DNA from: a virus
Lineage: Duplodnaviria > Caudoviricetes
Direction: 5' to 3' (one strand)
IMG/VR virus record: IMGVR_UViG_3300022837_000052
Location: 1-30,820 of that record
DNA: 30,820 nt
The notes beneath the pieces are model-generated. The model saw only the letters and a program-made list of their open reading frames with translations, did no database searches and had not been told where the DNA came from. This document shows, piece after piece, positions 3,181-19,547 of this stretch. Each line of letters opens with the position of its first letter. The stretch's first letter is position 1. The position numbers and the translations under genes were made by a program.

Positions 3181-3189
3181 GAGATTATT

Positions 3190-3441
3190 ATGAAAGATTC
3201 AGTAGACGTTTCATACTTTGGTGAAAAAGCTATGAAGAAGTATAAAAAATATAAAGATTCAAAAGAAACTCAACTACATTCTAAGACAGAAAAAGAAGGA
3301 AAAGAAAAAGCAAAAAGTAGAACTCTAAGTGAGATGTCTCAAGAGGAAGGTGTTACACCTAAATTTAATCATGGTGGCGAAGCAGTGGTACAAGGAGTAG
3401 GTATTGCTATTAAAGGTACAGGGTTTAAAGGAGTCTTTTAG
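3190..3441 (+). CDS. Small Lys-rich protein ending KFNHGG...AIKGTGFKGVF
   Basis: AGGAG RBS; C-terminus shared with ORF 9284. Confidence 0.8.
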   Translation: MKDSVDVSYFGEKAMKKYKKYKDSKETQLHSKTEKEGKEKAKSRTLSEMSQEEGVTPKFNHGGEAVVQGVGIAIKGTGFKGVF

Positions 3442-5699
3442 TGGCCGAACAATTTCTAAATACAAATACCTTTCTTGAACAAATAAGAAAAGGTTCTACT
3501 CCATTGACTAAGGAGGATACTTCTATTGTTGTAGATGATAAACGGCCTTCGGCCGTTGGCGGAATAGCAGCACTGGGTGCTACTGCACTAGGTACCGCTT
3601 TAATTGCAAAAAGAATTCCAGGTGCTAGAAACTTTTTTAAGTCTCCAAAGCCAAGTAGTAATGTTACTTACACTCCAAACAAAACAGTATCAGATTCAGC
3701 TGGCGACAGTTTAACGGCCACCGGCCAATCACAAGAATTAATTTTAAGTCCTTCTAAAGCTTTAGTACCAATGTCCTCTCGTTCTAAATTTGGTGAAGTA
3801 CAAAACATTCCTTTCACACAAGGAAAAGGTTATGGTGACACTAATCCAATTGTGGGTTCAGCAACTTTTGATAGAATTAAAGAAGCACAATTTGATTCTG
3901 CTCCGGCAGAACAATGGATTAAGTGGTTAGGAAAAGCAAACAACCCACAACTTAAAGTTAACTCTGGTCCGTTGACCGGTGTCTCTCGTAGAGTAACCGC
4001 TGACGAGTTAGATGAACTTAATATGATAAAATTAAATAAAGACGGTAAACCTGAATCAGGATTCTTAAAAATCGCAATGGATGAGAAACTACCCGTAGAC
4101 AGAGATACTTTATTAGACATGGTAAAAAATTCTCCAATCAATGATTTAAAAACATTAAGGTTAGGAGTTAGAGGAAACCCGACAGAAGAAGTTTTAGAAC
4201 TTACTAATAATTTTAAAAATGTAGCAATTAAACAAGGGCTACAGGACACCGGCACAACTCAATCTATTTTAAATAATTTAAGAGGGCTAGCTAGAACAGC
4301 AGATAATCAAATGAATCCTATGGATGCAGACGCTATAAGAATATTACAAAATGATTTAAGAGATCTAGCAGGAGAAGCATCAGACCCTGCTGCGTTCGCA
4401 AATATATTAGTTAAGTTAAATAGAACTACAGGAGACTATAATCAGTATAGTAAAAAAGTAGATCTTCCAAACGGTTTAAAATTTAGAAGAGATAAAGTAG
4501 GTAAAAATAATTTTTACCCAACTTATAAAAATCAAACAGGGTATGCTTTAAGAGGTGGAGAAAATTATACTGAAGACGTAATTTATTATGGCAAAAGATT
4601 ACCTAATGTTGACGGAGGAAAATTTGCAACGGGTGGCGGAAATCCTCATTTCATAGATAATGAAATTGGTTTTATTAGATACGATGATTTACCTAATCCT
4701 AAACTTGGAGGTAACAAAAGACATTTAAGAGTAAGTGAGGCTCAAACAGATATTCACTCGGAACAATTTTCAGCTAATAAAAGTAGTAGAGAAAATTATT
4801 TTAAAAATAGAATTAATCCTTTCAACACAGAAACTTCAGTTAAGATTCTTAAAAAACAAAGAGATGAGTTAATGGAGAAGGCTGCTCCTTTTAGAGAAAT
4901 TGGTAGAGGGATTGCAGGATTGACTAGAAAACAGCAACAAGAATTAGCTAATGTGAATTACAGGATTTCTCAAATAGAAAAATCTGCTGCAGGTAAGTTA
5001 TTACAAAGAGGAACTATCGAACAAACTACAGCCGCTCCTTTATCTAGATCTTGGCCAGATTATGTAGCTAAGAACTTACTTAGAACAATGGCAGAAAGAA
5101 ACATTAACGCTGTATCTATAATACCTTCATCAATGAATAAAGGAATTAAAATGCCTGGTGGTAGTATGATAGGAGATGAGATTAATTATGGATTAATGGA
5201 TGGAACTACTATTATGAGAACTGCTAGTGGTGAGATTAGAAAAACAAGTTCTCTTGCAACTATGGTAGCTCCTTTTAAAAAAATTGCTAATCAATATGGA
5301 GCTAAATTTGAAATGTTTCCTATGCCTAAATCTAATCCTAATAAAAGATTTAAAGTTGTAGAAGAAATAAGCACTAGAGATAATTCTGAGTATTTAAAAA
5401 ACATTAAAGACGGTAGAGCTACTTATACTTATAAAGACGGAGATAACTATGTGTTTCAAGAGCATATAGGAGCTTCAAATACTTTAGATGAAGCAGAAGA
5501 ATTATTAAAAATATCTTCAGGAGACAGAGGTAAACTAAGAGTAATTGAAATGGGTCCAGACGAACCTAGATTATATGAAACAGTTCCTACTTTAATTGCA
5601 GATGACCAAGTATTAAAGAAATTTTTGTTGCCTATGAAAGCTTATATGAACGCAGGTGGTTTTGTAGACAATACTAATATATTTAAACCACTATTATAG
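3441..5699 (+). CDS. Large protein (752 aa), probable internal virion/ejection protein
   Basis: GTG start coupled to the upstream stop with AAGGAG; one N-terminal hydrophobic segment; RHLRVSEAQTDIH and APLSRSWP..KNLLR resemble the EEIQSD-type motifs I associate with large phage virion proteins; ends YMNAGGFV... Confidence 0.6.
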   Translation: MAEQFLNTNTFLEQIRKGSTPLTKEDTSIVVDDKRPSAVGGIAALGATALGTALIAKRIPGARNFFKSPKPSSNVTYTPNKTVSDSAGDSLTATGQSQELILSPSKALVPMSSRSKFGEVQNIPFTQGKGYGDTNPIVGSATFDRIKEAQFDSAPAEQWIKWLGKANNPQLKVNSGPLTGVSRRVTADELDELNMIKLNKDGKPESGFLKIAMDEKLPVDRDTLLDMVKNSPINDLKTLRLGVRGNPTEEVLELTNNFKNVAIKQGLQDTGTTQSILNNLRGLARTADNQMNPMDADAIRILQNDLRDLAGEASDPAAFANILVKLNRTTGDYNQYSKKVDLPNGLKFRRDKVGKNNFYPTYKNQTGYALRGGENYTEDVIYYGKRLPNVDGGKFATGGGNPHFIDNEIGFIRYDDLPNPKLGGNKRHLRVSEAQTDIHSEQFSANKSSRENYFKNRINPFNTETSVKILKKQRDELMEKAAPFREIGRGIAGLTRKQQQELANVNYRISQIEKSAAGKLLQRGTIEQTTAAPLSRSWPDYVAKNLLRTMAERNINAVSIIPSSMNKGIKMPGGSMIGDEINYGLMDGTTIMRTASGEIRKTSSLATMVAPFKKIANQYGAKFEMFPMPKSNPNKRFKVVEEISTRDNSEYLKNIKDGRATYTYKDGDNYVFQEHIGASNTLDEAEELLKISSGDRGKLRVIEMGPDEPRLYETVPTLIADDQVLKKFLLPMKAYMNAGGFVDNTNIFKPLL

Positions 5700-5752
5700 A
5701 TTTTTAAGTAAATTTGCTTTACAATGTGGCGATAAACCTATAGGAGATAACA

Positions 5753-6097
5753 ATGAAGAAGAATATGAAAAGAGCACTTGCAGCCGGTGTTATTGGTATG
5801 CTTGGTTCTAAAATGGCAGGAGCGGGAACAGGCTCTGCTTTAATGAGACCAAACATGAGAAACATCGCTGGAGAAAAGAAAAAAAGCATTTTAGAAAAGA
5901 TTTTAAATATGGGTCCAGGAAGAAATGCAACATCTAGTAAAGGCGGAACGTTAGCAAGTAAAGTACTAGGAAGTAATGGTTTTGGCTTAGGAGCTATGGA
6001 CGGAGCTAAATACGGTAAAATGATCAAAGCTAACAAAGGTACTTACGTAAAAGCATCTTGTAAGTTAGGAAGAAACAAGCCAACTAAAATAACATAA
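5753..6097 (+). CDS. Small basic Gly/Met/Lys-rich protein
   Basis: AGGAG RBS; C-terminal AKYGKMIKANKGTYVKASCKLGRNKPTKIT. Confidence 0.75.
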   Translation: MKKNMKRALAAGVIGMLGSKMAGAGTGSALMRPNMRNIAGEKKKSILEKILNMGPGRNATSSKGGTLASKVLGSNGFGLGAMDGAKYGKMIKANKGTYVKASCKLGRNKPTKIT

Positions 6098-6103
6098 TAA
6101 TTT

Positions 6104-8440
6104 ATGGCTATTGAGACCGATAATCCAATTGATGAAGAAATTGATATTGAGGAAGAGGCAGTTGTTTCGTTACCTGAAGATGGTGAAGAAGAAGTAGCTG
6201 AAGAAACCGAAGCAGAAGATTTTTTTGCAAACGTTGCAGAAACAATTGATGACAAAGCTTTACAACAGTTAGCGTCTGATTTAATTTCTGAATATGATTC
6301 TGATAAAGAATCTAGAAAAGATTGGGAAGACACTTATAGAAATGGTTTAGATCTTTTAGGATTTAAATACAAATCTACTACACAACCTTTCAAAGGAGCA
6401 AGTAATGTTACTCACCCTTTGTTATCGGAAGCCGTAACACAATTCCAATCACAAGCTTATAAAGAACTCTTACCTTCTGATGGTCCAGTAAAAACTAAAA
6501 TTGTTGGATTACAAAACGAAGAAGTTGAAGCACAATCTCAAAGAGTAAAAGATTTCATGAACTATCAAATCATGGAGAAGATGGAAGAGTACACTCCAGA
6601 GTTTGATCAGTTATTATTTTATTTACCTTTAGCAGGATCTGCATTTAAAAAAATTTATTATGATTCTCTTTTAGAAAGAGCAGTATCAAAGTTTGTTCCA
6701 GCAGAAGATTTAGTAGTACCTTATTACGCAACTGATCTAAAAGATGCTCCAAGAATTACTCACGTTTTAAAACAATCAGAAAACGACTTACTTAAAAAGA
6801 TGGCTTCAGGATTCTACATGGAAGTAGACTTAATGAAACCTCAAAAGAAAGAAGACAAAATTCAAGATAAATACAATGAACTAGAAGGGATTAAACCTGT
6901 TGAAACTAACGACTATATCTACAATGTTTTAGAGATGCATGTTGATTTAGATTTATCTGATTATATTTCAGAAGGTGAGGATTCTTTAGGAATTAAAATT
7001 CCATACATTGTAACAATAGAAGAATCTACAAGACAAGTTTTATCTATATATAGAAATTACAATAAAGATGATTCTAAATTCACAAGAAAAGAATATTTTG
7101 CACACTTTAAATTTTTACCAGGATTAGGTTTTTATGGTTTTGGTTTAATTCACATGATCGGTGGCCTGTCACGAACAGCAACTACTGCTTTAAGACAGTT
7201 ATTAGATGCTGGAACGTTATCTAACTTACCTGCTGGATTTAAATCTAGAGGAATGAGAATTAGAGATGATGACCAACCTATTCAACCAGGAGAGTTCAGA
7301 GACGTAGATGCACCTGGCGGAAATATTAGAGACCAGTTTCAGTTACTACCTTTTAAAGAACCCTCAGCTATTTTATTTAACCTTTTAGGTTTTTGTGTAG
7401 ATGCAGGAAGAAGATTTGCATCTATTGCAGATAACCCAACTGCTGATATGAATTCACAAGCACCTGTTGGAACTACAATTGCTCTTTTAGAAAGAGGTTC
7501 AAGAGTAATTAGTGCTATTCATAAACGTTGTTACTATGCAATGAAGCAAGAATTTAAGTTATTAGCTAATGTAATTTCAGAATATTTACCTCCTGAGTAT
7601 CCTTATTCAGTTTATGGAGCAGAAAGAGTTATAAAATTATTAGATTTTGATGAGAGAGTAGATATTTTACCTGTTGCAGATCCAAATATTTTCTCAATGT
7701 CACAAAGAGTGACGTTAGCACAGACACAATTACAAATAGCACAGTCAAATCCTCAACTTCATAACTTACACGAAGCTTATAGACGTGTTTATGAAGCTTT
7801 AGGAACAAAAGAAATACCTCAATTATTAAAACCAGAGGTAAAACCTATCCCAGAAGATCCTGCAATGGAAAATATGAAAGCAATGCAGATGAAAAGTCTT
7901 GTAGCTTTCCCAGAACAAGATCATGATGCACACATAGCAGCCCATTCAGCGTTTATGAGAACTAGAATGGTTCAAATTAACCCTACTGTATACGCAAATC
8001 TACAAGGACATATTTCTCAGCACGTATCTTTAAAAGCAAGTGCTGAAGTTCAACAAATGATGCAGCAAAATCCTCAAATGATACAGTTATCACAAGAAAA
8101 CCCTCAAGCATTCCAAAATATGCTTAATTCAGAGATAGCTAAACGTGTAGCACAGATAACTTCTGAGTTAGCTCAAGCAGAAATGCAAGCAGATGGAGCT
8201 AAACAAGACCCAATTGTAATGTTGAAACAAAGAGAGCTTGATTTAAGAGCTATGGATTTACAACGTAGGTCTCAAGAGGGTACAATCAAGATAGAAAACC
8301 AAGAAGACCAATTTGAAGACAGATTGGACTTTGATAAAATGAAATTAGAACAAAACGATGACCAGTCAGATGCAAGACTGGAAGTTGCACGTGAAAAAAT
8401 GGAATTAAATCAAAAGAAACAGGAGAAAAAAAATGGGTAA
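6104..8440 (+). CDS. Portal protein (P22-like)
   Basis: Size, position after terL, motifs HPLLSEAVTQFQ, LAGSAFKKIYYD, FLPGLGFYGFG, LLDAGTLSNLP, and a Q/E-rich C-terminal coiled coil. Confidence 0.9.
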   Translation: MAIETDNPIDEEIDIEEEAVVSLPEDGEEEVAEETEAEDFFANVAETIDDKALQQLASDLISEYDSDKESRKDWEDTYRNGLDLLGFKYKSTTQPFKGASNVTHPLLSEAVTQFQSQAYKELLPSDGPVKTKIVGLQNEEVEAQSQRVKDFMNYQIMEKMEEYTPEFDQLLFYLPLAGSAFKKIYYDSLLERAVSKFVPAEDLVVPYYATDLKDAPRITHVLKQSENDLLKKMASGFYMEVDLMKPQKKEDKIQDKYNELEGIKPVETNDYIYNVLEMHVDLDLSDYISEGEDSLGIKIPYIVTIEESTRQVLSIYRNYNKDDSKFTRKEYFAHFKFLPGLGFYGFGLIHMIGGLSRTATTALRQLLDAGTLSNLPAGFKSRGMRIRDDDQPIQPGEFRDVDAPGGNIRDQFQLLPFKEPSAILFNLLGFCVDAGRRFASIADNPTADMNSQAPVGTTIALLERGSRVISAIHKRCYYAMKQEFKLLANVISEYLPPEYPYSVYGAERVIKLLDFDERVDILPVADPNIFSMSQRVTLAQTQLQIAQSNPQLHNLHEAYRRVYEALGTKEIPQLLKPEVKPIPEDPAMENMKAMQMKSLVAFPEQDHDAHIAAHSAFMRTRMVQINPTVYANLQGHISQHVSLKASAEVQQMMQQNPQMIQLSQENPQAFQNMLNSEIAKRVAQITSELAQAEMQADGAKQDPIVMLKQRELDLRAMDLQRRSQEGTIKIENQEDQFEDRLDFDKMKLEQNDDQSDARLEVAREKMELNQKKQEKKNG

Positions 8441-9284
8441 GAAATTAGGATTAGACAAACTTTATAAAAGTATTGGAGTTTTTCCAACAACAAGTAAGTT
8501 TAAGGAAAGATCATTAAAATTAAGAGCAGGAAATCCCAGTAAACTACCTAGTAGTGCTTTAACTGTAGGAAAACCTTTAGTTAACAGTAAGTTTATGGAA
8601 AGATCGTTAAAACTAAGAGCAGGTACAAGTGACGGTAAAAAATATCCTACAGCATTAACTACAAGTGTAAATAAAAGTTCAAAACTTTTAAATATAGGTA
8701 AAAAAGTTTTGGGTAGAACACCTGTGGGTAGAGCAATAAATCTTGCAGTAAATGTTGGATCGGGTATTGGAATAGGATATTCATATGCTAAAAATAAATT
8801 TAAAGGTAAAAGCGAAACTAAAGTAGATAAAAAATCTGCCGGTGGCGAAATGAACCAAATGAATATCAAAGGTTACATGGGTGGTGGAGCATCAAGAGGT
8901 TATGGTGCTGCTAGAACATCTGGAATGGGATTACAAGATGAGTCTTTAATGCCTGGTAAAATGGTTAGAGCTAGCGAAGGTAAAGCTGTAAGACCTTATA
9001 ATCCAAAAGATAAAAAACAAAAAAAAATAACAGATAAACAGAATCCACATTCTTTGTATGATTCTAAAACTGGAAAATTAATATACACTGCCGCTAAAAA
9101 TGGTAAAATGGTTAAGATGAACAGAGGTGGCGGAATGGATGCAGGAGCTGCTCAAAATAAAGCAGATTTTAGAGCAAGAGTTATAAAATATGCACAAAAA
9201 AATAAAGGTGAAGATAGAGTAACTCAATCTGATATAAAAATGGCTGAAAAAACTTTAACAGCAATGAATAAATTAAAAAAATAA
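8433..9284 (+). CDS. Basic low-complexity protein with several xxGG motifs and an internal 31-aa duplication
   Basis: AGGAG RBS; SKFxERSLKLRAG twice; KSAGG, YMGGG, MNRGG. Confidence 0.75.
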   Translation: MGKKLGLDKLYKSIGVFPTTSKFKERSLKLRAGNPSKLPSSALTVGKPLVNSKFMERSLKLRAGTSDGKKYPTALTTSVNKSSKLLNIGKKVLGRTPVGRAINLAVNVGSGIGIGYSYAKNKFKGKSETKVDKKSAGGEMNQMNIKGYMGGGASRGYGAARTSGMGLQDESLMPGKMVRASEGKAVRPYNPKDKKQKKITDKQNPHSLYDSKTGKLIYTAAKNGKMVKMNRGGGMDAGAAQNKADFRARVIKYAQKNKGEDRVTQSDIKMAEKTLTAMNKLKK

Positions 9285-9904
9285 TGGCTATAAGAACTAA
9301 TAAAAGATTAACCAGAACTATTCCTCCTTTAAGAGGACCTAATTCTCAAGTACCTCCTGTTAAGTTTTCAAAAGGAATGACTAAAGGTGGGTTAAGAGTT
9401 AGAAAATTTAGAGGTGGTGGTGCTGACATGGGTGATCCAGGAAGAGCTCAAGAAAGAGCTGATCGTGGTTATGGAGATACAAGTGGTGTAGACAGAAGTG
9501 CTGTTTCGGGGACTTCTACTTATGGCAGAAATGTAATGAATCAAAACATTGCTGACGTAAATAAAGGTTCAGGTTTTGGAGGTGCTATAGGTAATGCAGC
9601 TAATTTTGTTGTTGGAAGAGTTTTAGATGTACCAGGTATAGCTATTGGAGCTGTTAAAGGTATAGCAGACAAATTTTCAGGAATTACTAGAAGCAAAACA
9701 CAAACTGCTAACCAAATAGCAGATTCTTATTCAAAAAATAATTTAAATAATAGTATGAATGACGGTCAAGGAGACAATACTGTTTTATGTGCTGACGGAA
9801 CACAACCACCTTGTAAAAGTGCTGGAATGGTTAACGGTGGTGAAATAAGAGTAAGAGGTAGTAGATCTGCTATTAGAGGCACAGGTTTTAAAGGAGTCTT
9901 TTAA
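9284..9904 (+). CDS. Gly-rich basic protein ending MVNGG...AIRGTGFKGVF
   Basis: TAATG coupling on both sides; C-terminus shared with ORF 3190. Confidence 0.8.
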   Translation: MAIRTNKRLTRTIPPLRGPNSQVPPVKFSKGMTKGGLRVRKFRGGGADMGDPGRAQERADRGYGDTSGVDRSAVSGTSTYGRNVMNQNIADVNKGSGFGGAIGNAANFVVGRVLDVPGIAIGAVKGIADKFSGITRSKTQTANQIADSYSKNNLNNSMNDGQGDNTVLCADGTQPPCKSAGMVNGGEIRVRGSRSAIRGTGFKGVF

Positions 9905-10281
9905 TGTGGTTCTCAGCAATTAAACTAGCTGTCCAAGCGGGAAGTCATATCTACAAAAATAAGCAAAAAACTAAGATGCTTATGGCAGATGCACAGATGA
10001 ATCATGCTCAAAAAATGGCAGATGGTCAAGCAGAGTATCAAGGTAAGTTATTAGAAAGTAGAGATTCAGATTGGAAAGACGAATTTATTTTGCTTTTATT
10101 GGCACTCCCAATCGTAATGTTAGGATTTGCAGTATGGTCAGATGATCCAACTCATATGGAAAAAATGCAATTATTCTTTGAGTATTTTTCACAGCTTCCA
10201 TTTTGGTATCAAACAATTTTCGTGGGTGTCATAGCAAGTGTCTATGGACTTAAAGCAACAGATCTGATAAAGAGAAAATAA
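9904..10281 (+). CDS. Membrane protein, putative holin-like (WKDEF family)
   Basis: Two hydrophobic helices after DWKDEF and a basic C-terminus. Confidence 0.55.
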   Translation: MWFSAIKLAVQAGSHIYKNKQKTKMLMADAQMNHAQKMADGQAEYQGKLLESRDSDWKDEFILLLLALPIVMLGFAVWSDDPTHMEKMQLFFEYFSQLPFWYQTIFVGVIASVYGLKATDLIKRK

Positions 10282-10327
10282 TGTGGAAATAAATTTACAA
10301 ACCTTATAATTAATATATAACTATTTT

Positions 10328-10885
10328 ATGATTAAAGGAGATAGTACAGAGTATGAATTACTTACTAAATGGACTAAAGAATTTGATTGCCAAGGTTTTA
10401 AATCATGTGAGATCGGAATTCGTGAAGGACTTGGGTCTAAGATTATTATTGATAATGTCATTAATAATTATATCCATGTGGGTGTTGATCCTTACGGTAA
10501 TTTAAAATACCAACATTACGATGAATCTTCAGAATATACATGTGACTACACAGATCAGATGAGAGATACAATGTTGAATGATTTTTATGCCTATAGAAAT
10601 GAGGGTAAATTTACTTTAGCTAATATGACTGATGTTGATTTTATGACTATATCAGAACATATAAATTCTAAATTTTCATTAGTGCATTTTGATGGGCCAC
10701 ACATGACAAAAGATGTAATTGCTGAAGCTGTTTGGTTTGCACAAAGATCAGCCCCAGTTACAAGATTTATATTTGATGATTATCCAAAATATAATCTCAC
10801 TTTAATTCAAGATATTCTTAAATGTTGGGGATTTAAAACAATTGAACAAGGAACAAACAAAGTATTATTAGAAAAAAACAATTAA
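10328..10885 (+). CDS. Class I SAM-dependent methyltransferase (Methyltransf_24-like)
   Basis: Motif I EIGIREGLGS, GVDPY, LVHFDGPH, FIFDDY. Confidence 0.8.
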   Translation: MIKGDSTEYELLTKWTKEFDCQGFKSCEIGIREGLGSKIIIDNVINNYIHVGVDPYGNLKYQHYDESSEYTCDYTDQMRDTMLNDFYAYRNEGKFTLANMTDVDFMTISEHINSKFSLVHFDGPHMTKDVIAEAVWFAQRSAPVTRFIFDDYPKYNLTLIQDILKCWGFKTIEQGTNKVLLEKNN

Positions 10886-11100
10886 TGGATTCAGAATTTT
10901 CAGTAGAAAGATTAATTAATAAAAGATTAGAGGGTTTAAAAGATACCTTAGTGTACTCCGTTGACAAAATGGAACAATTACATTATATTAGAGGTCAAAT
11001 CAAAGGCCTAGAGTCTTTGCTTCAGGATCTTAAAGACCTGCAGAAAAAACAGGAGCAATTAAATGAAAAAGAACTTAGAGACTTCAAAGGAAGTACCTAA
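10885..11100 (+). CDS. Small helical hypothetical protein preceding GroES
   Basis: Coupled ORF with YIRGQIKGL and heptad Leu pattern. Confidence 0.7.
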   Translation: MDSEFSVERLINKRLEGLKDTLVYSVDKMEQLHYIRGQIKGLESLLQDLKDLQKKQEQLNEKELRDFKGST

Positions 11101-11536
11101 AAATACAGAAGCATTACTCAATGCTTATAAATCAAAAGACGAAATAAAAACAAAAGATACAATCCTAGATGTTAACGAAGTTGAAAAGAACGTAGATCTT
11201 TTAGAAAAACTTCCAACACCTACAGGATATAGACTTTTAGTTTTACCTTACGCTGGTCCTCAAAAAACCAAAGGAGGTATATATCTTTCAGACAAAACTC
11301 AAGAGACAATACAAATGACTACCGTATGTGCATATGTATTGAAGGTGGGGGATCTAGCCTACAAAGACAAAGAAAAATTTCCAAATGGAGCATGGTGTTC
11401 TAAAGGAGATTGGGTAATTTTTGGTCGATACGCAGGATCTAGATTTAAAATAGAAGGCGGAGAAGTTCGTATTCTAAACGATGATGAGATTATAGGAAAG
11501 ATTAATAATCCGGAGGATATCTTGCACGCATACTAA
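11063..11536 (+). CDS. groES: Co-chaperonin GroES (Cpn10) with N-terminal extension
   Basis: PTGYRLLV, KTKGGIYL mobile loop, VLKVG, GDWVIFGRYAG, RILNDDEI. Confidence 0.92.
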   Translation: MKKNLETSKEVPKNTEALLNAYKSKDEIKTKDTILDVNEVEKNVDLLEKLPTPTGYRLLVLPYAGPQKTKGGIYLSDKTQETIQMTTVCAYVLKVGDLAYKDKEKFPNGAWCSKGDWVIFGRYAGSRFKIEGGEVRILNDDEIIGKINNPEDILHAY

Positions 11537-11563
11537 TACATACGCAATTAACAGGAGCTACAA

Positions 11564-12550
11564 ATGGAACAAAACGAAGAAATAAAAAAGTCGCCAGAAG
11601 TTGAATTAGATACTGATGGTGTTCAAGACCAATCAATAAATGTCGAAGAACTGGCGGAACCAGTTGAAACAGAACTACCAAAACAAGAAGTTGATTTAGG
11701 TTATACAGAACCTAAACCTGCTGGAATTGAAGGTATTGAAGTTGAATCAAAACCAGAGAAAACTAAAGTCGCTGTCGATGATCTTACTGACGTTTCAGAA
11801 AAAGTAAAAAGAAGAATTGACAAATTAACTTTTAAAATCAGAGAAGCTGAACGAAGAGAAAAAGCCGCTTTGGATTACGCAAAAAGTGTTCAAGGAAAGT
11901 TAGACGATACTAACACTAGGTTTTCTAAAACAAGTAAAAGTTATATTGAACAATACTCAGCTAGAGTAGTCGCAGAACAAGAAAAAGCAAGATCAGCATT
12001 AAAAGATGCAATTGCTGAACAAGATTCAGATAAAATAGCAGATGCTAATTCTACAATGGCAAGATTAGCAGTTGAAGCAGAAAAAGCTAAAATGTCAGCT
12101 GCAGAAGAAGAAGCTAAAGAAGAAAAAGCTACTAAAGTCGCTACTGAAAAAAGAGAAAACCCAGTAATGCAAGAACCTCAAAACCCTACTTACGCACCAC
12201 CATCTGGTAGAGCTAAAGGTTGGGCAGAGAAAAATGAATGGTTCGGAACAGATAGAATCATGACTAGTGCAGCCTTTCAGACTCACCAAGATCTTGTAGA
12301 GCAGGGGTTTGACGCAGAGAGCGATGAGTATTATAATGAAATTGATAAAGTTATGAAGGATAATTTTCCTCATAAATTTAGTCAACCACAGGAGCAAAAG
12401 AAACCCGTCCAGACTGTTGCTTCTGCACAAAGAAACCAAACCGGACGCCGAACAGTGAAACTCACCAAGTCACAAATAGTTATCGCTAAAAAACTAGGGG
12501 TGCCACTAGAGGAATACGCAAAATACGTGAAGGAGAATGCAAATGGATAA
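11564..12550 (+). CDS. Capsid scaffolding protein
   Basis: Acidic N-terminus, long coiled coil, W..KN.WF motif, C-terminal LTKSQIVIAKKLGVPLEEYAK; position upstream of the capsid genes. Confidence 0.75.
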   Translation: MEQNEEIKKSPEVELDTDGVQDQSINVEELAEPVETELPKQEVDLGYTEPKPAGIEGIEVESKPEKTKVAVDDLTDVSEKVKRRIDKLTFKIREAERREKAALDYAKSVQGKLDDTNTRFSKTSKSYIEQYSARVVAEQEKARSALKDAIAEQDSDKIADANSTMARLAVEAEKAKMSAAEEEAKEEKATKVATEKRENPVMQEPQNPTYAPPSGRAKGWAEKNEWFGTDRIMTSAAFQTHQDLVEQGFDAESDEYYNEIDKVMKDNFPHKFSQPQEQKKPVQTVASAQRNQTGRRTVKLTKSQIVIAKKLGVPLEEYAKYVKENANG

Positions 12551-13013
12551 TATAAAAAGAACCTCACGCGAGTCAGAGACTAGGAAAGAAAATACACAAC
12601 CTAAATCTTGGGCTCCACCATCGAGTTTAGATGCGCCACCTGCACCACAGGGATATGCACATCGTTGGATAAGAACGAGTGTTACTGGGTTTGAGGATAC
12701 AGCTAATGTAACCAAAAAACTTAGAGAAGGTTGGGATTTCGTAAGAGCCGATGAACTAGAAAGTTCTGGGCAAGCTCACAAATTTCCAATTTTACATCAG
12801 GGGCAGTATAAAGGATGCATCGGAATTGGTGGCCTTGTTTTGGCAAGGATACCTGAAGAGATATTAAAATCGCGTGCCGAGTACTTCACAAGAATTACTC
12901 AAGACCAAATCACTGCGGTAGATAATGATCTAATGAAGGAACAAAGACCCGAAATGCCAATCAATATTGATAGGCAGAGTAGAGTAACCTTTGGCGGTAG
13001 ACGTAAAAGCTAA
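12537..13013 (+). CDS. Head-module hypothetical protein
   Basis: WAPPSSLDAP..GYAHRWIR..REGW..GGLVLARIP; lies between scaffold and capsid genes; start may be 12543. Confidence 0.75.
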   Translation: MQMDNIKRTSRESETRKENTQPKSWAPPSSLDAPPAPQGYAHRWIRTSVTGFEDTANVTKKLREGWDFVRADELESSGQAHKFPILHQGQYKGCIGIGGLVLARIPEEILKSRAEYFTRITQDQITAVDNDLMKEQRPEMPINIDRQSRVTFGGRRKS

Positions 13014-13093
13014 AATTAGTTTTTTAGTAATAACTATATACCACAATCGGGGACTCTTAATTGTAACATAAATGTTTAAATAGGAGAAAACAT

Positions 13094-13681
13094 ATGAGTA
13101 ACGTAGTAGAAAAGTTCGGTCTTAGACCTTACAGAAAACTAGACGGAACACCATTAGTTGGAGCCCAAAACAGATATACAGTTAAGCCCGGATATGCTAC
13201 AGCAATTTATCAAGGAGATTTGGTTATACCAACTTCTACTGGTAATATTGAAAAGTACGATCCATCGGGTGGAGCTTCAAATGTTGTTGTGGGTGTCTTT
13301 AATGGTTGTTTCTATAACGACCCAACAACGCAAAAGCCAACGTATAAGAACTATTACCCTGGTGGAGTTACACCTACTGAAGGTAATTTAACTGCATACA
13401 TCGTAGATGATCCAGACGCAGTATTCTTAGCGGATGCTGATGCTGTTTTTGCAAGAGCAAACCTTTTTAGTAATTACGGTATAACTAATACTACTGGAGT
13501 TACACAAACAGGTATTTCGAAAGCACAACTTGACGTTTCTGTTGTAGGAACTGCAAATACTTTTGTTGTACAAGCAATAGATATTTGTCAAGATCCAGAC
13601 AACAGTGACACAAGTGAAGCTAATGCGAATATTCTTGTTAGAATCAACAATCACTTCTTTAGAAGTGGAACAGGAGTATAG
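13094..13681 (+). CDS. Minor capsid/cement (decoration) protein
   Basis: AGGAG RBS; FGLRP..IYQGD..GVFNG..VDDP motifs; immediately upstream of the MCP. Confidence 0.65.
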   Translation: MSNVVEKFGLRPYRKLDGTPLVGAQNRYTVKPGYATAIYQGDLVIPTSTGNIEKYDPSGGASNVVVGVFNGCFYNDPTTQKPTYKNYYPGGVTPTEGNLTAYIVDDPDAVFLADADAVFARANLFSNYGITNTTGVTQTGISKAQLDVSVVGTANTFVVQAIDICQDPDNSDTSEANANILVRINNHFFRSGTGV

Positions 13682-13684
13682 ATC

Positions 13685-14602
13685 ATGGCAATATCACGAG
13701 CACAACTAGTTAAAGAACTAGAACCAGGTTTGAATGCATTATTCGGACTTGAATACAATAGATATGAAAATCAACATGCGGAGATTTTCCCATCTGAAAC
13801 ATCTGACAGAGCTTTCGAAGAAGAAGTAATGTTAAGCGGTTTCGCTTCAGCACCAGTTAAACAAGAAGGTGCAGGAGTAGTGTTTGATCAAGCGGGTGAA
13901 ACTTTCACTGCTAGATACTCTCACGAGACTATCGCTTTAGCATTCTCTATTACTGAGGAAGCAATCGAAGATAACCTGTACGATAGACTTGCAGCTAGAT
14001 ATACTAGAGCACTTGCAAGATCTATGTCTAACACTAAGCAAGTAAAAGCTGCTTCTGTGTTAAACAACGCACAGCAAGCTGCTGGTTTCAACGGAGGAGA
14101 TGGTGTTTCATTAATAAACAACGCTCACCCACTTGCAACTGGTGGTACGTTCTCGAACGTATTAGCTGTAGCTGCTGACTTAAACGAAACTTCACTTGAG
14201 CAATCTTTGATTGACATTGCAGGTTTTGTTGACGAAAGAGGTTTAAAAATTGCTCTTTCAGGTAGAAAAATGATAATTCCAAAAGAATTACAATTTACTG
14301 CTGAGAGATTAATGAAATCACCTCAAAGAGTCGGTACTGCTGATAATGATATCAACGCAATCGTTAACATGGGAATGATTCCTGAAGGTTACAGAGTGAA
14401 TAACTTCTTAGCTGACACGGACGCATTTTTCATTATGACTGATACTCCAAACGGTTTTAAACACTTCATTAGAAGTCCAATTAAAACTGCTATGGAAGGC
14501 GACTTTGATACTGGTAATGTTAGATTTAAAGCGAGAGAAAGATATTCTTTCGGTTGGTCTGACCCAAGAGCAGTATTTGGTAACGGAAACTTACCAACTT
14601 AA
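13685..14602 (+). CDS. Major capsid protein (Mu gpT-like, HK97 fold)
   Basis: MAISRAQL.KELEPGLNALFG, ITEEAIEDNLY, DFDTGNVRFKARERYSFGWSDPR; followed by a terminator. Confidence 0.92.
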   Translation: MAISRAQLVKELEPGLNALFGLEYNRYENQHAEIFPSETSDRAFEEEVMLSGFASAPVKQEGAGVVFDQAGETFTARYSHETIALAFSITEEAIEDNLYDRLAARYTRALARSMSNTKQVKAASVLNNAQQAAGFNGGDGVSLINNAHPLATGGTFSNVLAVAADLNETSLEQSLIDIAGFVDERGLKIALSGRKMIIPKELQFTAERLMKSPQRVGTADNDINAIVNMGMIPEGYRVNNFLADTDAFFIMTDTPNGFKHFIRSPIKTAMEGDFDTGNVRFKARERYSFGWSDPRAVFGNGNLPT

Positions 14603-14630
14603 TAGCTTAAATACTTAAAAGTATTATTTA

Positions 14631-14662
14631 AAAGGGGCGGAGTTTACTCTGCCTCTTTTTTT
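14631..14662 (+). terminator. Rho-independent terminator after the MCP
   Basis: GGGGCGGAGT/ACTCTGCCTC stem (two G-U pairs) followed by T7. Confidence 0.8.
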
Positions 14663-14671
14663 ATGTATAAT
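14643..14671 (+). promoter_or_regulatory. Sigma70-like promoter TTTACT-N17-TATAAT overlapping the terminator
   Basis: -35 at 14643-14648, perfect -10 at 14666-14671. Confidence 0.6.
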
Positions 14672-14689
14672 ATAAACACTAGATAATAT

Positions 14690-14751
14690 AATTTTGTAGA
14701 CTGACTAGTCAGACGGTATAGAGACTACAAAATTTAACCGCTATACAGGAG
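14690..14751 (+). ncRNA. Structured RNA element, candidate Mu-gpT-DE motif
   Basis: P1 14690-14699/14725-14734; inner hairpin CTGAC-TA-GTCAG 14701-14712; pseudoknot GTATAG 14716-14721 with CTATAC 14741-14746 abutting AGGAG; lies downstream of a gpT-like MCP. Confidence 0.6.
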
Positions 14752-14760
14752 AAAACTATT

Positions 14761-15279
14761 ATGGCAAACACTACCTTTTCAGGACCGGTCATTTCTAAAA
14801 ATGGCTTTATAGGTACTGGACCAGGATCAACTGTAGCATTAACAGGTAACACATCGTTAACTGTAAACGCTCATGCAGGAAGAATCCTTTTAACTCAAGA
14901 TGCTGATGGTATTTTTACTTTACCATCAATCAATGCAAATGCTAATGCAGCAACTGCAGGTGAGACAGACTACAACAATCAAAATAACATTGGTGCAACT
15001 TTTACTTTTTATGTAGACTTAACTGCAACTGATATTCAAATCGTAACTGACGGAACTGACAAGTTCACAGGGGCTGCTATGATCGCAGTGGATGATGGAG
15101 CTAAAAAAGCTTTCTTCCCTGCTGCATCTAATGATGTTCTTTCTATGAATGGAACAACAACTGGTGGAATTGTAGGTTCAGTAATTACAGTTACTGCTTT
15201 AGAAACTGCTCAATACTTGGTACACAATACTTTGATTTTAGGATCAGGAACTATTGTTACACCATTTAGCGACACGTAA
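14761..15279 (+). CDS. Virion structural protein (head fibre/decoration-like, MANTTFSGPV N-terminus)
   Basis: AGGAG RBS; Thr/Gly/Ala-rich beta composition; FTLP motif. Confidence 0.65.
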   Translation: MANTTFSGPVISKNGFIGTGPGSTVALTGNTSLTVNAHAGRILLTQDADGIFTLPSINANANAATAGETDYNNQNNIGATFTFYVDLTATDIQIVTDGTDKFTGAAMIAVDDGAKKAFFPAASNDVLSMNGTTTGGIVGSVITVTALETAQYLVHNTLILGSGTIVTPFSDT

Positions 15280-15287
15280 TAATAAAC

Positions 15288-15311
15288 TAGTGGCTCCTTC
15301 GGGAGCCACTA
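15288..15311 (+). other. cUUCGg tetraloop hairpin with a 10-bp stem, directly before an RBS
   Basis: TAGTGGCTCC-TTCG-GGAGCCACTA; no U-tract. Confidence 0.75.
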
Positions 15312-15324
15312 ATTAGGAGAATTT

Positions 15325-15651
15325 ATGTTTAAAGGCGATATACAAGCCACAAGATCGACAGCAGGAAACACAGGAACTGCCGTAATTGCACAACCTGTAA
15401 GACTTAAAGGAATTATTGTTGCCTCAGATAGTGTTGGAGCAGGTTTGTTAGAATTAACAACTACTTCAAACTCAGGGGATACTTTATTTATTGCAGATGT
15501 AACTAGTGGAGATATAGTTAATTTTTCTTTTCCAGACGATGGTATTTTATTTCCAAAAGGAATTTTTTGTAAAACAAAAACAAATGTTACAGCTTACACA
15601 TTATTAACAGATAAATATTCTGGTCCTAATTTAACAGGGAGTAATGGATAA
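15325..15651 (+). CDS. Small beta-rich virion protein (paralog of the next gene)
   Basis: RLKGI...FPDDGILFPKGI. Confidence 0.7.
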   Translation: MFKGDIQATRSTAGNTGTAVIAQPVRLKGIIVASDSVGAGLLELTTTSNSGDTLFIADVTSGDIVNFSFPDDGILFPKGIFCKTKTNVTAYTLLTDKYSGPNLTGSNG

Positions 15652-15938
15652 TGGGTGGTTCAAGTTTTTCATCAGATCAAGGTAATGCTCATGCAACTGC
15701 TACAGCACAATTGGTTGCAACAGGTGGTAGAGCTAGACTAACTTCTATTCAAGGAGAAGGTATTGCATCAGCACTATTAGTTTTTAGAAGTGGTGGAGGT
15801 ACTGGAGATGTAATAGCTACTTATGGATTTGGTGTAGAAGGTTTAGCTGTTTATGTTCCAGGAAATGGTATTGTTTTTGAAGATGGTATCCACGTTACAG
15901 TAACTAACTGTCCAAACGTTTCTATTACTTTTACGTAA
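15651..15938 (+). CDS. Small beta-rich virion protein (paralog of the previous gene)
   Basis: RLTSI...VPGNGIVFEDGI; TAATG coupling. Confidence 0.7.
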   Translation: MGGSSFSSDQGNAHATATAQLVATGGRARLTSIQGEGIASALLVFRSGGGTGDVIATYGFGVEGLAVYVPGNGIVFEDGIHVTVTNCPNVSITFT

Positions 15939-15939
15939 A

Positions 15940-16266
15940 ATGGATTTAGAATATTACTCAGATATTCTGGAATTAAAAAGAGGTGGTTCAATTAGAAAAA
16001 CTACCAAAGGACCTGGAGCCAATTATAGATCTACAAAATCTGGTGCAGGAATGACTTCCAAAGGTGTTAAAGCATATAGAAAAGCTAATCCGGGAAGTAA
16101 ATTAAAAACTGCAGTAACAGGTAAAGTTAAAGCAGGATCTAAAGCTGCAAATAGACGTAAGTCATATTGTGCAAGATCACTAGGTCAACTTAAAAGATCT
16201 TCAGCTAAAACAAGAAACGATCCTAACTCTAGAATAAGACAAGCTAGAAGAAGATGGAAGTGTTAA
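15940..16266 (+). CDS. Highly basic protein of the RRKS[YF]CAR...RRRWKC phage family (DUF6321-like), possibly DNA-binding
   Basis: GMTSKGVKAYRKANPGSKLKTAV, RRKSYCAR, NSRIRQARRRWKC; family name is from memory. Confidence 0.7.
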   Translation: MDLEYYSDILELKRGGSIRKTTKGPGANYRSTKSGAGMTSKGVKAYRKANPGSKLKTAVTGKVKAGSKAANRRKSYCARSLGQLKRSSAKTRNDPNSRIRQARRRWKC

Positions 16267-16433
16267 TGAGAGATAATAGAGTAATAGAAAGTTTTTTAAA
16301 AAAAACTCAAAGAAAACTAAAAGAAATGAGTCTTTTTAAGTCTTTAAAAAAAGAAGTAGAAACAGGTGCTAACGGCACTCAAGATTACATCATTAAAAAA
16401 GGCATAAATAAAGACACAATAGCCAAAAAATGA
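16266..16433 (+). CDS. 55-aa hypothetical protein (not in ORF track)
   Basis: MRDNRVIESFLKK...EVETGANGTQDYIIKKGINKDTIAKK; TAATG and ATGA overlaps with both neighbours. Confidence 0.75.
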   Translation: MRDNRVIESFLKKTQRKLKEMSLFKSLKKEVETGANGTQDYIIKKGINKDTIAKK

Positions 16434-16639
16434 TTTCTAAAATATATTGGTGGCTTGTAGATATATCTATGTATCTTGTGTTATTATTGTTTTTTTTATT
16501 AGTTTTGTTAGGCATATATTTTAAAACCATGATAGATAAATTTTGTTATAAATTCTTTGGAACACTGGACAATATCTGCGAATGGATAGCTAATAAAATA
16601 GCGGGCAAAAGATGTAAATGTAAAAAAGGAGAAAAATAA
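16430..16639 (+). CDS. Small membrane protein, lysis region
   Basis: N-terminal hydrophobic helix, basic Cys-containing tail; a shorter start at MIDKFCY is possible. Confidence 0.55.
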   Translation: MISKIYWWLVDISMYLVLLLFFLLVLLGIYFKTMIDKFCYKFFGTLDNICEWIANKIAGKRCKCKKGEK

Positions 16640-16839
16640 TGATTAGAAATTTTAAAGATATAGTGATTTTATTAATAACAAGTGGTGTATTATTACTCCT
16701 TGGAGTTATTATTATAGGTGACTATGTGGTAGCACTAGAAGAAAATAGACCAGTAGATGAAAGCGTAATTACATTAATGAAGATGTCGGTTACAGGACTA
16801 ATTGGTGTCATTGGTGGTTACATTGGTGGGAGTAAATAA
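16639..16839 (+). CDS. Two-TM small membrane protein, holin candidate
   Basis: AAGGAG RBS; two hydrophobic helices; GxxxGxxG pattern at the C-terminus. Confidence 0.65.
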   Translation: MIRNFKDIVILLITSGVLLLLGVIIIGDYVVALEENRPVDESVITLMKMSVTGLIGVIGGYIGGSK

Positions 16840-16840
16840 T

Positions 16841-16915
16841 ATGATTAGATATATATTAATGACAATCAACCACTATGCTACAGCCTTAACAAGTTGGTCA
16901 TGGCAAAAGTTATAA
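16841..16915 (+). CDS. 24-aa micropeptide MIRYILMTINHYATALTSWSWQKL
   Basis: GGGAG upstream; starts right after the previous stop. Confidence 0.45.
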   Translation: MIRYILMTINHYATALTSWSWQKL

Positions 16916-16947
16916 AGTAGATTCTAATTAATATGGAGTGTGCTAGT

Positions 16948-17019
16948 GTGAACTATTATTTTACAGGAGCTTTAATTATTGGATTTATTATACTAACAAT
17001 ATTAGTGGCACCCTTATGA
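16948..17019 (+). CDS. 23-aa single-TM micropeptide (GTG start; in-frame ATG at 16933)
   Basis: NYYFTGALIIGFIILTILVAPL; GGAG upstream; ATGA overlap with the next gene. Confidence 0.5.
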   Translation: MNYYFTGALIIGFIILTILVAPL

Positions 17020-17204
17020 CTAGAAAAACTAACACAGCAATGATAGCATTACTTGGTACAATCCTTATGGGATTAGCTACTTGGACACTCGTCACACTTA
17101 TAGAACTTCAGTTAATCGTAACCATGATCCAATCTGACTTGATGTCTATTGATAAACAATTTGGAAGAGTGTACAATTTCATAGATTCTGTTAGAGGTAA
17201 ATAA
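17016..17204 (+). CDS. Small protein with an N-terminal TM helix and short coiled coil
   Basis: Hydrophobic residues ~8-36; coupled to neighbours. Confidence 0.65.
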   Translation: MTRKTNTAMIALLGTILMGLATWTLVTLIELQLIVTMIQSDLMSIDKQFGRVYNFIDSVRGK

Positions 17205-17338
17205 TGAAAAATTGTAAAAAATGTAAAAAAGAATTCGAAGCTAAAGAAGAACTAGATATGTTCTGTAGTGATGAATGTAAACAAGAAGCAATAGCTGATC
17301 TTGACAGTGACAGCGATGAATGTTTATCTTGTCAATAA
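17204..17338 (+). CDS. 44-aa Cys-rich protein (CxxC..FCSxxC finger plus C-terminal ECLSCQ); not in ORF track
   Basis: MKNCKKCKKEFEAKEELDMFCSDECKQEAIADLDSDSDECLSCQ; GAGGT RBS; exactly fills the gap before the endolysin. Confidence 0.8.
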   Translation: MKNCKKCKKEFEAKEELDMFCSDECKQEAIADLDSDSDECLSCQ

Positions 17339-17812
17339 ATGAACTTATCTCGTAACTTCACTCTTCAAGAATTAATTAAATCAGACACTGCTGTCCGTAA
17401 GGGCATAGATAATAATCCTAATTCAGATCAGATAGAAAAGTTAAAACTATTGTGTGATAATATTCTACAACCCGTAAGAGATCACTTCGGTCCAGTGGTC
17501 GTTACAAGTTGTTATAGGTCATCTGAGTTATCAGTTGCAATAGGTAGCTCAATCAATAGTCAGCACTGCGATGCGGAAGCCGTTGATTTTGAATGTCCAG
17601 GAGTAGATAACGCAGAACTTTGTGATTGGATCTATAAAAATTTAGATTTTGACCAAATGATTTTGGAGTTTTACAAAAAAGGAGAACCTAATAGCGGATG
17701 GTGCCATTGTAGTTATATTGAAGATAAACCTAGAAAGCAGTTCTTGCATGCATTTAAAGAAGATGGTAGAACTAAATATAAACCAATAATAGGAAAAGCG
17801 GTAGATTTATAA
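17339..17812 (+). CDS. Endolysin, peptidase M15A (Zn D-Ala-D-Ala peptidase fold)
   Basis: LSRNFTLQE, VTSCYRS, SQHxxxxAVD, WCHCS. Confidence 0.88.
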   Translation: MNLSRNFTLQELIKSDTAVRKGIDNNPNSDQIEKLKLLCDNILQPVRDHFGPVVVTSCYRSSELSVAIGSSINSQHCDAEAVDFECPGVDNAELCDWIYKNLDFDQMILEFYKKGEPNSGWCHCSYIEDKPRKQFLHAFKEDGRTKYKPIIGKAVDL

Positions 17813-17976
17813 TGGCTATAACAAGAGGACAAATACCAGCACAGATAGACGGTCAACTTAGAGGCGCTAGAAAGAAAAAAGCACCATTAGGATATCATTA
17901 TATGCCAAATGGAAAGCTTATGAAAAATAGCGATCATGTTAAAAAAAAATCCAATAGCAAAAAAGCTAAGGTCTAG
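17812..17976 (+). CDS. 54-aa basic protein with an MCP-like N-terminus and GYHYMPNGKLMK motif; not in ORF track
   Basis: MAITRGQIPAQIDGQLRGARKKKAPLGYHYMPNGKLMKNSDHVKKKSNSKKAKV; TAATG coupling. Confidence 0.7.
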   Translation: MAITRGQIPAQIDGQLRGARKKKAPLGYHYMPNGKLMKNSDHVKKKSNSKKAKV

Positions 17977-18082
17977 AATCTTCACTTTAAAAGTGATACA
18001 ATCCAAGAAGTTGTACAACCGCAAAAAGGAGAAGTTATACACTCTCAATGCCGCGGCACAAAAAGGAGAAACAAATGGCTAA
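17936..18082 (+). CDS. 48-aa basic peptide, ArfA-like; not in ORF track
   Basis: MLKKNPIAKKLRSRIFTLKVIQSKKLYNRKKEKLYTLNAAAQKGETNG; overlaps both neighbours. Confidence 0.6.
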   Translation: MLKKNPIAKKLRSRIFTLKVIQSKKLYNRKKEKLYTLNAAAQKGETNG

Positions 18083-18275
18083 AAAAGGACCTTGTTGGCA
18101 AGGGTATGAAATGATTGGAATGAAGTCCAAAGGTGGACGTAAAGTTCCTAATTGTGTACCTAAGAAATCAAAAGGGGGTGAAATGGAATATAATGGATCT
18201 TCTATAAATTCAAGTATAGACGGAGAAACTATTTCTAATCAATCTTTAGTAAATTATTACAAAGGTATGATCTAG
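18075..18275 (+). CDS. Small protein with CWxGY...KVPNCVP motif, KSKGG and a NYYKGMI end
   Basis: AAGGAG RBS supports ATG 18075 rather than 18048. Confidence 0.75.
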   Translation: MAKKGPCWQGYEMIGMKSKGGRKVPNCVPKKSKGGEMEYNGSSINSSIDGETISNQSLVNYYKGMI

Positions 18276-18499
18276 TGAAAGCACAAAGACTATTAATTGG
18301 TGGTTTATTAACTGCTGGTATTAGATATGGACTTAAAAGATATGCTAAAGCTAGTGGTAAAAAACTTATTGATTTAGGTAAAGGACAGTCTAAAAAATTT
18401 GCTAAAGCAGATAAAGTTGAGGCTGTAAAATTACATGGTTCTACAAAATTAACTAAAACAGATAAAATTAAATTAAATTATTACAGAGATATACTATAA
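18275..18499 (+). CDS. Small basic protein (RLLIGGLL...NYYRDIL)
   Basis: GTG start overlapping TAG; coupled to the next gene. Confidence 0.7.
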   Translation: MKAQRLLIGGLLTAGIRYGLKRYAKASGKKLIDLGKGQSKKFAKADKVEAVKLHGSTKLTKTDKIKLNYYRDIL

Positions 18500-19188: not shown

Positions 19189-19547
19189 TGGCTTATGCAA
19201 CAGGTAAAAGATCTCATGCAATATCAGATAGATCTGGTATGTCATTTCCTTATCAAGAAATGGTTAGAGAATGGACTGGAGCTTTAGTACATATTTCTGA
19301 GTTTGAGTCTAAGCATCCTCAAATAAGAAGAAAAACAGTTAAAGCAGATGCGATAGCTTTAAAAAATTCTAGAACACAAGATTTCACATTTCTTTCTGGA
19401 GGTGCTATATTTACTACAATTGATTTAACATTACCAGGACAATTTGGTTTTCAGTCTTCTGGAATGCAGCCTGATAATAGTGCAGAACAAAATAGAAGAC
19501 GACAAATTAATATGAATTTAAATTCGGTTACTGTGGAGATTACATAA
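19188..19547 (+). CDS. Neck-region hypothetical protein
   Basis: AISDRSG..EWTGALVH..E.KHPQ; coupled. Confidence 0.65.
   Translation: MAYATGKRSHAISDRSGMSFPYQEMVREWTGALVHISEFESKHPQIRRKTVKADAIALKNSRTQDFTFLSGGAIFTTIDLTLPGQFGFQSSGMQPDNSAEQNRRRQINMNLNSVTVEIT

Follow-up and report, generated by a model that had tools for sequence, protein, structure and literature searches.

The 30,820-nucleotide stretch of tailed-phage DNA analyzed here (IMG/VR record IMGVR_UViG_3300022837_000052, positions 1 to 30,820; hereafter the window) holds the packaging, head and tail genes, one half of the genome, of an HTVC023P-type pelagiphage, a type abundant in the sea, and between positions 3190 and 18499 it encodes a set of late proteins that share a short glycine-based peptide, here referred to as the tag. 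In the accessory head-module proteins of related phages the tag has the consensus [M/Y/F/K]-[A/K/N/S]-x-G-G-x-[V/I/M], and a variant form, A-x-x-G-[K/T]-x-[V/I/M], is frequent. Its enrichment and conservation, as read from sequence, speak for a signal that is selected at the level of the protein and borne by probable head cargo. For its role we propose, at about an even chance of being right, that either form makes a hairpin of 7-8 residues serving as a handle by which ejection proteins and accessory basic proteins are loaded into the prohead, and is perhaps clipped.

Tag consensus and enrichment

Proteins of related loci were classed by position alone, in order to avoid circularity, which gave 392 non-redundant accessory proteins, encoded by genes with core head genes on either side, and a core set of 245. 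The pattern [FYMK][ANKS]xGGx[VIM] was found at 89 sites in the accessory proteins, against 6.4 expected from 20-residue local shuffles or 14.0 with the GG fixed, and at none in the core proteins, where 2-3 were expected. A further motif count gave 106 sites (18-37 expected) and 11 sites (8-14 expected) in the two sets, respectively. Tags occur in 30 of 172 accessory families (5 expected) and in 66 of the 225 basic accessory proteins as against 15 of the 167 non-basic ones, and acidic versions such as FNEGG, MADGG and FAEGG are common. Of the 106 sites, 48 are no more than 30 aa (amino acids) from the C-terminus, and 20 are as close to the N-terminus. Among large accessory proteins 7 of 18 have an end-proximal tag (0.4 expected; five of the seven belong to one family), compared to 0 of 20 large core proteins.

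The initial annotation of the window had described the element as [K/R]-[F/Y/M/L/K]-x-x-G-G. In that description the leading K/R is weak, and the informative positions, numbered from the first glycine, are -3 (M/Y/F/K), -2 (A/K/N/S) and +3 (V/I/M). The earlier pattern was a post hoc definition; 15 window open reading frames (ORFs) picked by position only contain it at 8 sites, where 1.2 would be expected (p=0.0005; with every GG fixed and the flanks shuffled locally, p=0.005). A held-out profile, trained on the 264 accessory proteins of relatives without a BLAST hit to this genome, gave the five top ranks among 156 GG sites to window accessory sites (5 vs. 0.7 expected, p=0.001), but with the GG fixed p was only 0.03-0.05. 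Over the whole genome the strict pattern was not significant (4 vs. 1.5 expected), and an unanchored mixture model, which drifted between the two glycines, gave p=0.058. In the other 32 window ORFs, too, the loose pattern [FYML]xxGG exceeds expectation (25 vs. 8.8), which we attribute to AFGG repeats of tail proteins.

The carriers are rich in Gly and Lys, and this, together with the borderline values of the window alone in the strictest held-out test, is what a compositional or nucleotide-level artefact would predict, for example a Shine-Dalgarno sequence that precedes an internal start and happens to be translated. However, the enrichment in relatives withstands both local and GG-fixed shuffles, so that the earlier claim of a motif beyond Gly/Lys composition, for which a shuffle check had been suggested, was borne out. 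Codon use is at background level (GGA encodes the first Gly in 7 of 79 tags, and GTG encodes the +3 Val in 5 of 48), and the Shine-Dalgarno explanation was therefore rejected. An artefact is refuted at the family level and we consider it highly improbable.

Variant form and predicted fold

The variant A-x-x-G-[K/T]-x-[VIM] was found at 27 sites, against 4-5 expected, and positions -3 and +1 of the tag covary. Of 89 sites with F/Y/M at -3, 60 have Gly at +1; of 55 with Ala at -3, 49 have another residue there, mostly Lys or Thr. When only one site per flank context was counted (68 independent sites) the covariation persisted, with a median p of 1e-5 and a worst p of 4e-4. The G-K/T form also swaps with GG between orthologues. 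ORF 5753 (5753..6097, + strand), a 114-aa basic protein, has two tandem 8-residue variant tags, GAKYGKMI and KANKGTYV, at 6002-6049, and its orthologues show AKAGGM or AKTGKM at the position of AKYGKM. This covariation points to a contact of -3 and +1 such as exists in a short beta-hairpin, and the tag likely folds as one, in which a bulky residue at -3 would pack over Gly at +1, or Ala at -3 would lie beside Lys or Thr at +1.

Conservation on large and ejection proteins

The best conserved tag of the window is that of a 752-aa protein (ORF 3441..5699, +), YMNAGGFV at 5643-5666, with 12 residues beyond the GG. GG-x-V stands exactly 12 residues from the end in 118 of 120 homologues, as the initial annotation's expectation of conservation in orthologues would have it, and the two tag-less homologues are shorter sequences that stop before the tag position. 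The GG is retained in 17 of 17 homologues, down to 24% identity, and Y735, G739 and G740 are invariant in 49 sequences. The initial annotation had characterized the carriers as mostly basic, low-complexity proteins, a description from which the 752-aa protein departs in not being of low complexity. It has no family match in Pfam, PHROG or NCBIfam, no significant PDB match, and Atlas hits below 0.9. Residues E433, Q435 and D437 are also invariant in 49 homologues, and the protein is possibly an injected enzyme.

The IMG/VR contig G001 is 99.9% identical to window positions 215-8555, and its other end is an exact match to 30694-30820. Window and contig together likely cover a circle of ~59.9 kb, and this near-identical contig thus opens the remainder of the genome to examination. 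Three of the four proteins in the G001 ejection cluster are tagged. A 330-aa protein has FNTGG and FNEGG before a tape-measure-like module (phrog_3547, E=5.5e-4), a 750-aa protein has FFVGG at residue 31, near the N-terminus, and a 1080-aa protein has LNKGG near the C-terminus; the flank identity of 0.33 around the last of these is partly due to query insertions and is not used as evidence. In HTVC023P, gp43, gp51, gp79, gp82 and gp83 bear the tag, and the last two, which are syntenic with G001 proteins, have it at the same ends even though BLAST gives no hit from them to the G001 proteins. The tail that follows a C-terminal tag differs between families, with 12 residues in the 752-aa protein, 7 in gp83, 4 in gp52 and 2 in a protein of locus L144. 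Tails so short and so specific to the family look more like handles than like released products.

Modules and seams

According to the initial annotation the motif often separates distinct peptide modules. Seams do fall at tags, with the qualification that the MKSKGG of ORF 18048 is internal to a shared module. Internal homology breakpoints are within 5 residues of a tag in 25 of 117 cases (11.4 expected). ORF 8433 (8433..9284, +) encodes a 283-aa basic mosaic protein with tags at 8829, 8871, 8967, 9090 and 9114, and KSAGG, YMGGG, KMNRGG, ASEGKA and AKNGKM are all in place as first noted. One relative, whose portal is 99% identical, has a different module in the interval from 8967 to 9090 (RASEGK to AAKNGK), and DNA identity between the two phages breaks at tags.

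ORF 15940 (15940..16266, +) encodes a 16-residue leader ending in the tag ELKRGG (15970), followed by a DUF6321 module (PF19846) that begins right after the tag, where stand-alone versions begin; DUF6321 alone is encoded in HTVC119P and Skadi-6. Among DUF6321 carriers with a leader, 16 of 18 match the tag at the seam and the other two have variants of it. The module of ORF 15940 was found in 429 phage records and that of ORF 18048 in 261, mostly named Synechococcus or cyanophage. The same mini-modules as in these two ORFs and their relatives are present in 'gp114'-like proteins of T4-like cyanophages, S-RIM2 SWTG_00073 and P-SSM5 PRTG_00318 (three modules by BLAST, a fourth by eye), where they are joined in one polypeptide. 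Unlike in the tagged proteins, the linkers there are rich in Glu (EE counts of 6 and 4, where 1.7 and 0.9 are expected), and GG is not in excess. The sharing implies that these modules travel with head-processing-type signals elsewhere, and it appears that a GG tag can occupy the place held by gp21-like sites in T4-like phages. Another P-SSM5 protein, PRTG_00316 (L256 4649-6640), has Glu-rich linkers plus two GG-tag-like sites (0.1 expected).

These seams bear on the strongest rival to a loading handle, namely that the tag chiefly marks a site of cleavage, X|A-x-G-G (between -3 and -2). Such a cut, made by the protein itself or by a protease either of the host or of the phage and unrecognised, would free small basic modules and mature ejection proteins. 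The breakpoint excess, the start of the DUF6321 module right after the tag and the gp21-like linkers between shared modules in T4-like cyanophages all speak for it, as do a mapped cut in T5 pb2 and the register of a crAss001 cargo segment, both described below. On the other hand, recombination between repeats also predicts seams at tags, the very short tails give no useful product, 0 of the 392 accessory proteins start directly with the would-be product N-terminus, no protease candidate was found in the ~60-kb genome, and the size reported for processed lambda gpH differs from that expected of a cut after FATGG. We regard cleavage as the main role as possible at clearly less than an even chance; a cut could also follow loading.

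Pure tandem arrays of tags, with periods of 7 (L043), 8 (ORF 5753) and 12 residues (L060), suggest still another explanation, that the tag is a small structural repeat, a DNA-binding or self-stacking beta unit spread by recombination and having no sorting role. The preference for basic accessory proteins and the breaks of DNA identity at tags fit such a unit. It leaves unexplained, however, the single end-proximal tags conserved on large proteins, and acidic versions are common while core proteins lack the tag. We find this explanation doubtful.

Search for a processing protease

The initial annotation noted a likeness of the motif to di-glycine sites, saw no protease in the window and would place it elsewhere, with binding of the motif to portal, scaffold or capsid protein as the alternative. 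In processing by the clan CE proteases (adenovirus, African swine fever virus, Ulp) and in double-glycine processing by C39 peptidases a hydrophobic residue stands upstream of Gly-Gly, as in the tag, and for clan CE the di-glycine is regarded as obligatory at the cut. A Pfam scan of 47 window ORFs and 33 of the 43 G001 ORFs found an M15 endolysin as the sole peptidase and no clan CE member. In six-frame searches of G001 and three relatives, two of which are 95-97% complete, C39 (PF03412) and C48 (PF02902) were each found in 0 of 4 records, with controls positive in 7 of 14 and 1 of 14 genomes, respectively. When the window was added, S78 was found in 0 of 5 records (controls positive in 4 of 14), as was S77, for which no control gave a signal. 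The predicted protease was thus not recovered: no C39, C48 or S78 peptidase was found in G001 or in the two relatives that are at least 95% complete. A novel-fold, divergent, host or unrecognised enzyme could escape these searches.

Several candidates were rejected. A Peptidase_M1 match on a 132-aa G001 ORF was below the cut-off (E=0.018), and where the capsid gene matches PHROG 'head and protease' profiles, the match is confined to their C-terminal part. The best candidate by position was ORF 12537 (12537..13013, +), a 158-aa conserved core protein encoded between the scaffold and capsid genes, which AlphaFold2 predicts as a small alpha/beta domain with a pLDDT (predicted local distance difference test) of 76.6; it gave no Foldseek hit at E<=0.001 and a best VIA Z of 3.9, and His42 is not kept in distant homologues. 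This protein ends in RVTFGG, and this end with a few basic residues is kept in at least 90% of 80 close homologues and not in distant ones.

Cutting after GG by a clan CE or C39 protease is accordingly improbable. GG is the commonest form of the tag, Met is enriched at +2, and the leader of ORF 15940 ends in GG, all of which would suit such an enzyme. Yet a cognate enzyme was not found, the second Gly is dispensable, being commonly Lys or Thr in variants that orthologues have in place of GG, position +3 holds a conserved hydrophobic residue, and the one mapped cut at a similar motif lies upstream of A-x-G-G. With respect to C39 leader export, ORF 15940 is the only window carrier with a supported leader-type site. 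The likeness to di-glycine processing drawn in the initial annotation is therefore unsupported, and what remains of its interpretation is the signal on probable head cargo, which is conserved, present on ejection proteins and placed at seams.

Proposed function

In the mechanism we favor, a receptor in the portal, scaffold or ejection core would recognize the tag and in this way bring both ejection proteins and basic accessory proteins into the prohead, and after loading the proteins may be clipped just before A-x-G-G. Repeated tags would double as recombination seams, and new modules could gain the handle in that way. The tagged proteins would accordingly be virion cargo. We prefer a loading handle because of the conserved end tags with short tails, the confinement to accessory and ejection proteins, the covariation, and the lack of an evident protease. 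The portal-bound cargo segment of crAss001, described below, and the modules shared with T4-like cyanophages also count in its favor.

A number of observations weigh against it. The AlphaFold2 model of the tagged tape-measure-like module has a pLDDT <50 over residues 41-118 and is uninformative, which leaves the covariation as the evidence for the hairpin. No receptor was identified for the tag, and our literature search, which did not extend to supplements, found no virion proteome of any carrier. The G001 DNA-ejection protein (phrog_4287 match), encoded among the three tagged ones, has no clear tag, and 10 of 28 DUF6321 carriers lack a leader and begin directly at the module with no tag. Strict sites number 0 in CRP-901 (50 of 53 kb read) and ct2os315, phages of the same capsid family, so that the tag is not universal and any essential role is made less probable. 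Tape measures with similar motifs reside in tails, and a head receptor therefore cannot serve all carriers; the only cut mapped at such a motif, in one of those tape measures, precedes A-x-G-G; and module homology to the cargo protein of crAss001 is at an hhalign probability of 0.3%, the link being by eye only. A complex prediction for the tape-measure-like module (without its own tags) and the C-terminal peptide of the 752-aa protein scored 0.00, with controls that did not fold, and is not evidence either way.

A loading handle would bear on how podophages without a prohead protease select the contents of their heads, and a phage in culture, HTVC023P, carries it.

Other features of the window

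The remaining peptides named in the initial annotation are all where it placed them. ORF 3190 (3190..3441, +), an 83-aa basic protein, has KFNHGGEA at 3361-3384, which ranks third of the 156 GG sites, and ORF 9284 (9284..9904, +) is a 206-aa basic mosaic with tags at 9374, 9404 and 9824; MTKGG, KFRGGG and GMVNGG are all present in it. The carriers had been called dissimilar, and mostly they are; these two, however, have in common a C-terminal module after the tag, G-x-G-x-A...FKGVF, ending ...GTGFKGVF. ORF 18048 (18048..18275, +; 75 aa) combines a CWxGY...VPNCVP module, the tag KKSKGGEM at 18162 and a C-terminal NYYKGMI. The same CWxGY...VPNCVP module is found mid-protein in gp13 of the archaeal virus HSTV-1 (L254 1802-3223), annotated as a head maturation protease. 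ORF 18275 (18275..18499, +), a 74-aa basic protein ending in NYYRDIL, contains RLLIGG at 18287, which had been counted as a tag site; it ranks 127 of 156, the ORF has no homologue among 3253 proteins, and a hydrophobic subtype that might have rescued it showed no enrichment, so this site is unsupported.

The ends of ORFs 18048 (18252-18272) and 18275 (18476-18496) belong to a second shared motif, YY-x-[D/G]-[I/L/M]-[I/L/M], also present in the leader of ORF 15940 (15952-15969). In the 392 accessory proteins it occurs at 8 sites (0.2 expected), all in the last 10 residues. ORF 17812 (17812..17976, +), a 54-aa basic protein without GG, has an N-terminus, MAITRGQ, that resembles the MAISRAQ of the capsid protein; 4 of the 392 accessory proteins open in this capsid-like way, and one of them also has a GG tag. 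In the tag-less CRP-901 two large head-module proteins, gp72 and gp73 (L084 40588-44747), which are BLAST-related to each other, end in [YF]D-x-[DE]-GNP.

Two gene products are candidate receptors, the portal protein (6104..8440, +; phrog_1216, E=2e-46), which has no tag, and a probable scaffold (11564..12550, +; phrog_28737, a family of unknown function), its role being suggested by acidic composition and position upstream of the capsid genes. The major capsid protein (13685..14602, +) is 88% identical to that of HTVC023P. Profile and Pfam scans also identified terminase, GroES, adaptor and tail genes in the window. Between two adaptor genes, a conserved gene at 19188-19547 opens with a tag-like [YF]A-x-G-K-x-A, and at positions 22535-30287 a sulfotransferase and three 2-oxoglutarate/Fe(II) (2OG-Fe(II)) oxygenases come after three tail proteins with Gly/Ser/Thr-rich repeats. 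In the HTVC023P-type group 8 of 13 core genes were left unannotated, according to the portion of PMC9599517 available. Window DNA is present in salt-lake metagenome assemblies (contigs of four runs), with no informative joints at tags among the matches listed.

Comparison with known systems

The closest functional parallel is the capsid targeting sequence (CTS) of phage T4, which, with its protease gp21, is described in the available portion of PMC9026906. One short peptide serves there for both targeting and cutting, which can be separated, and like the tag it is common to divergent, often basic, head-internal proteins; T4 Alt is also processed at its C-terminus, which recalls the C-terminal tags. 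The CTS differs in that it is 10 residues long, stands at the N-terminus and is cut after Glu by a protease that the phage encodes, whereas the tag is mostly internal or C-terminal, Gly-based and repeated. In keeping with this, 0 of the 392 accessory proteins open with the tag, and its consensus has no Glu requirement.

In sequence, the nearest motifs are those of siphophage tape measures, where RAEGGMM, FATGGFT, YATGGYV and YANGGFL flank a GEF-type module (T5 pb2, lambda gpH and mycobacteriophage gp16, PDB 8ZDO). The module of the 330-aa G001 protein matches 8ZDO at E=3e-6; the match of its profile to lambda gpH is not significant (E=0.32), and the window carriers do not contain the module. 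The loose tag pattern lies at most 62 aa upstream of the tape-measure module in 79 of 130 module hits, a count made without a shuffle control. Each tape measure is a single tail protein, whereas here many head-module proteins bear the motif. For T5 pb2 the cut maps after R1127 (PMC10038345, in the text available), where the sequence reads SFVPR|AEGGMM, so that the cut falls between -3 and -2 and not after GG. Lambda gpH has FATGG and YATGG around GEFVF; the accessible part of PMC12617516 states its cut site and enzyme to be unknown and reports a product of ~14 kDa, compared to 12.2 kDa for a cut after FATGG.

A third parallel is the cargo protein C1 (gp45) of crAss001, whose portal-bound resolved segment comprises residues 425-552 (PMC10172136, accessible text). 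It starts at the A of AFGG, in the register of the T5 cut, and spans an INEGG. Like the tagged proteins, C1 has several A-x-G-G-type motifs, and it is virion cargo with a portal-bound segment that opens at one of them. In the main text of that paper, as available, neither 'cleav' nor 'protease' occurs, and 'motif' appears solely in a reference title.

Taken further, these parallels would allow the tag of protease-less podophages to be a portable beta-hairpin derived from the C-terminal module of tape measures and a general code for ejection cargo. Whatever protein gained it by recombination would be threaded onto the ejection core and so delivered, and a cut between -3 and -2 would fall in this element as well. 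This extension is speculative and we think it unlikely; if true, it would also account for the still uncatalysed cuts by which lambda gpH and T5 pb2 mature.

No published description of the tag was found in the literature covered, which excluded subscription papers and supplements, and the signal on these probable injected proteins is real and apparently undescribed. The present analysis adds the whole-genome protease search, the covariation of -3 and +1, the split of DUF6321 carriers with and without a leader, and the equivalence of GG and Glu linkers for the same modules. The tag would work like the T4 CTS, yet lacks its N-terminal position and Glu cut site, and is related in sequence to the C-terminal motifs of tape measures.

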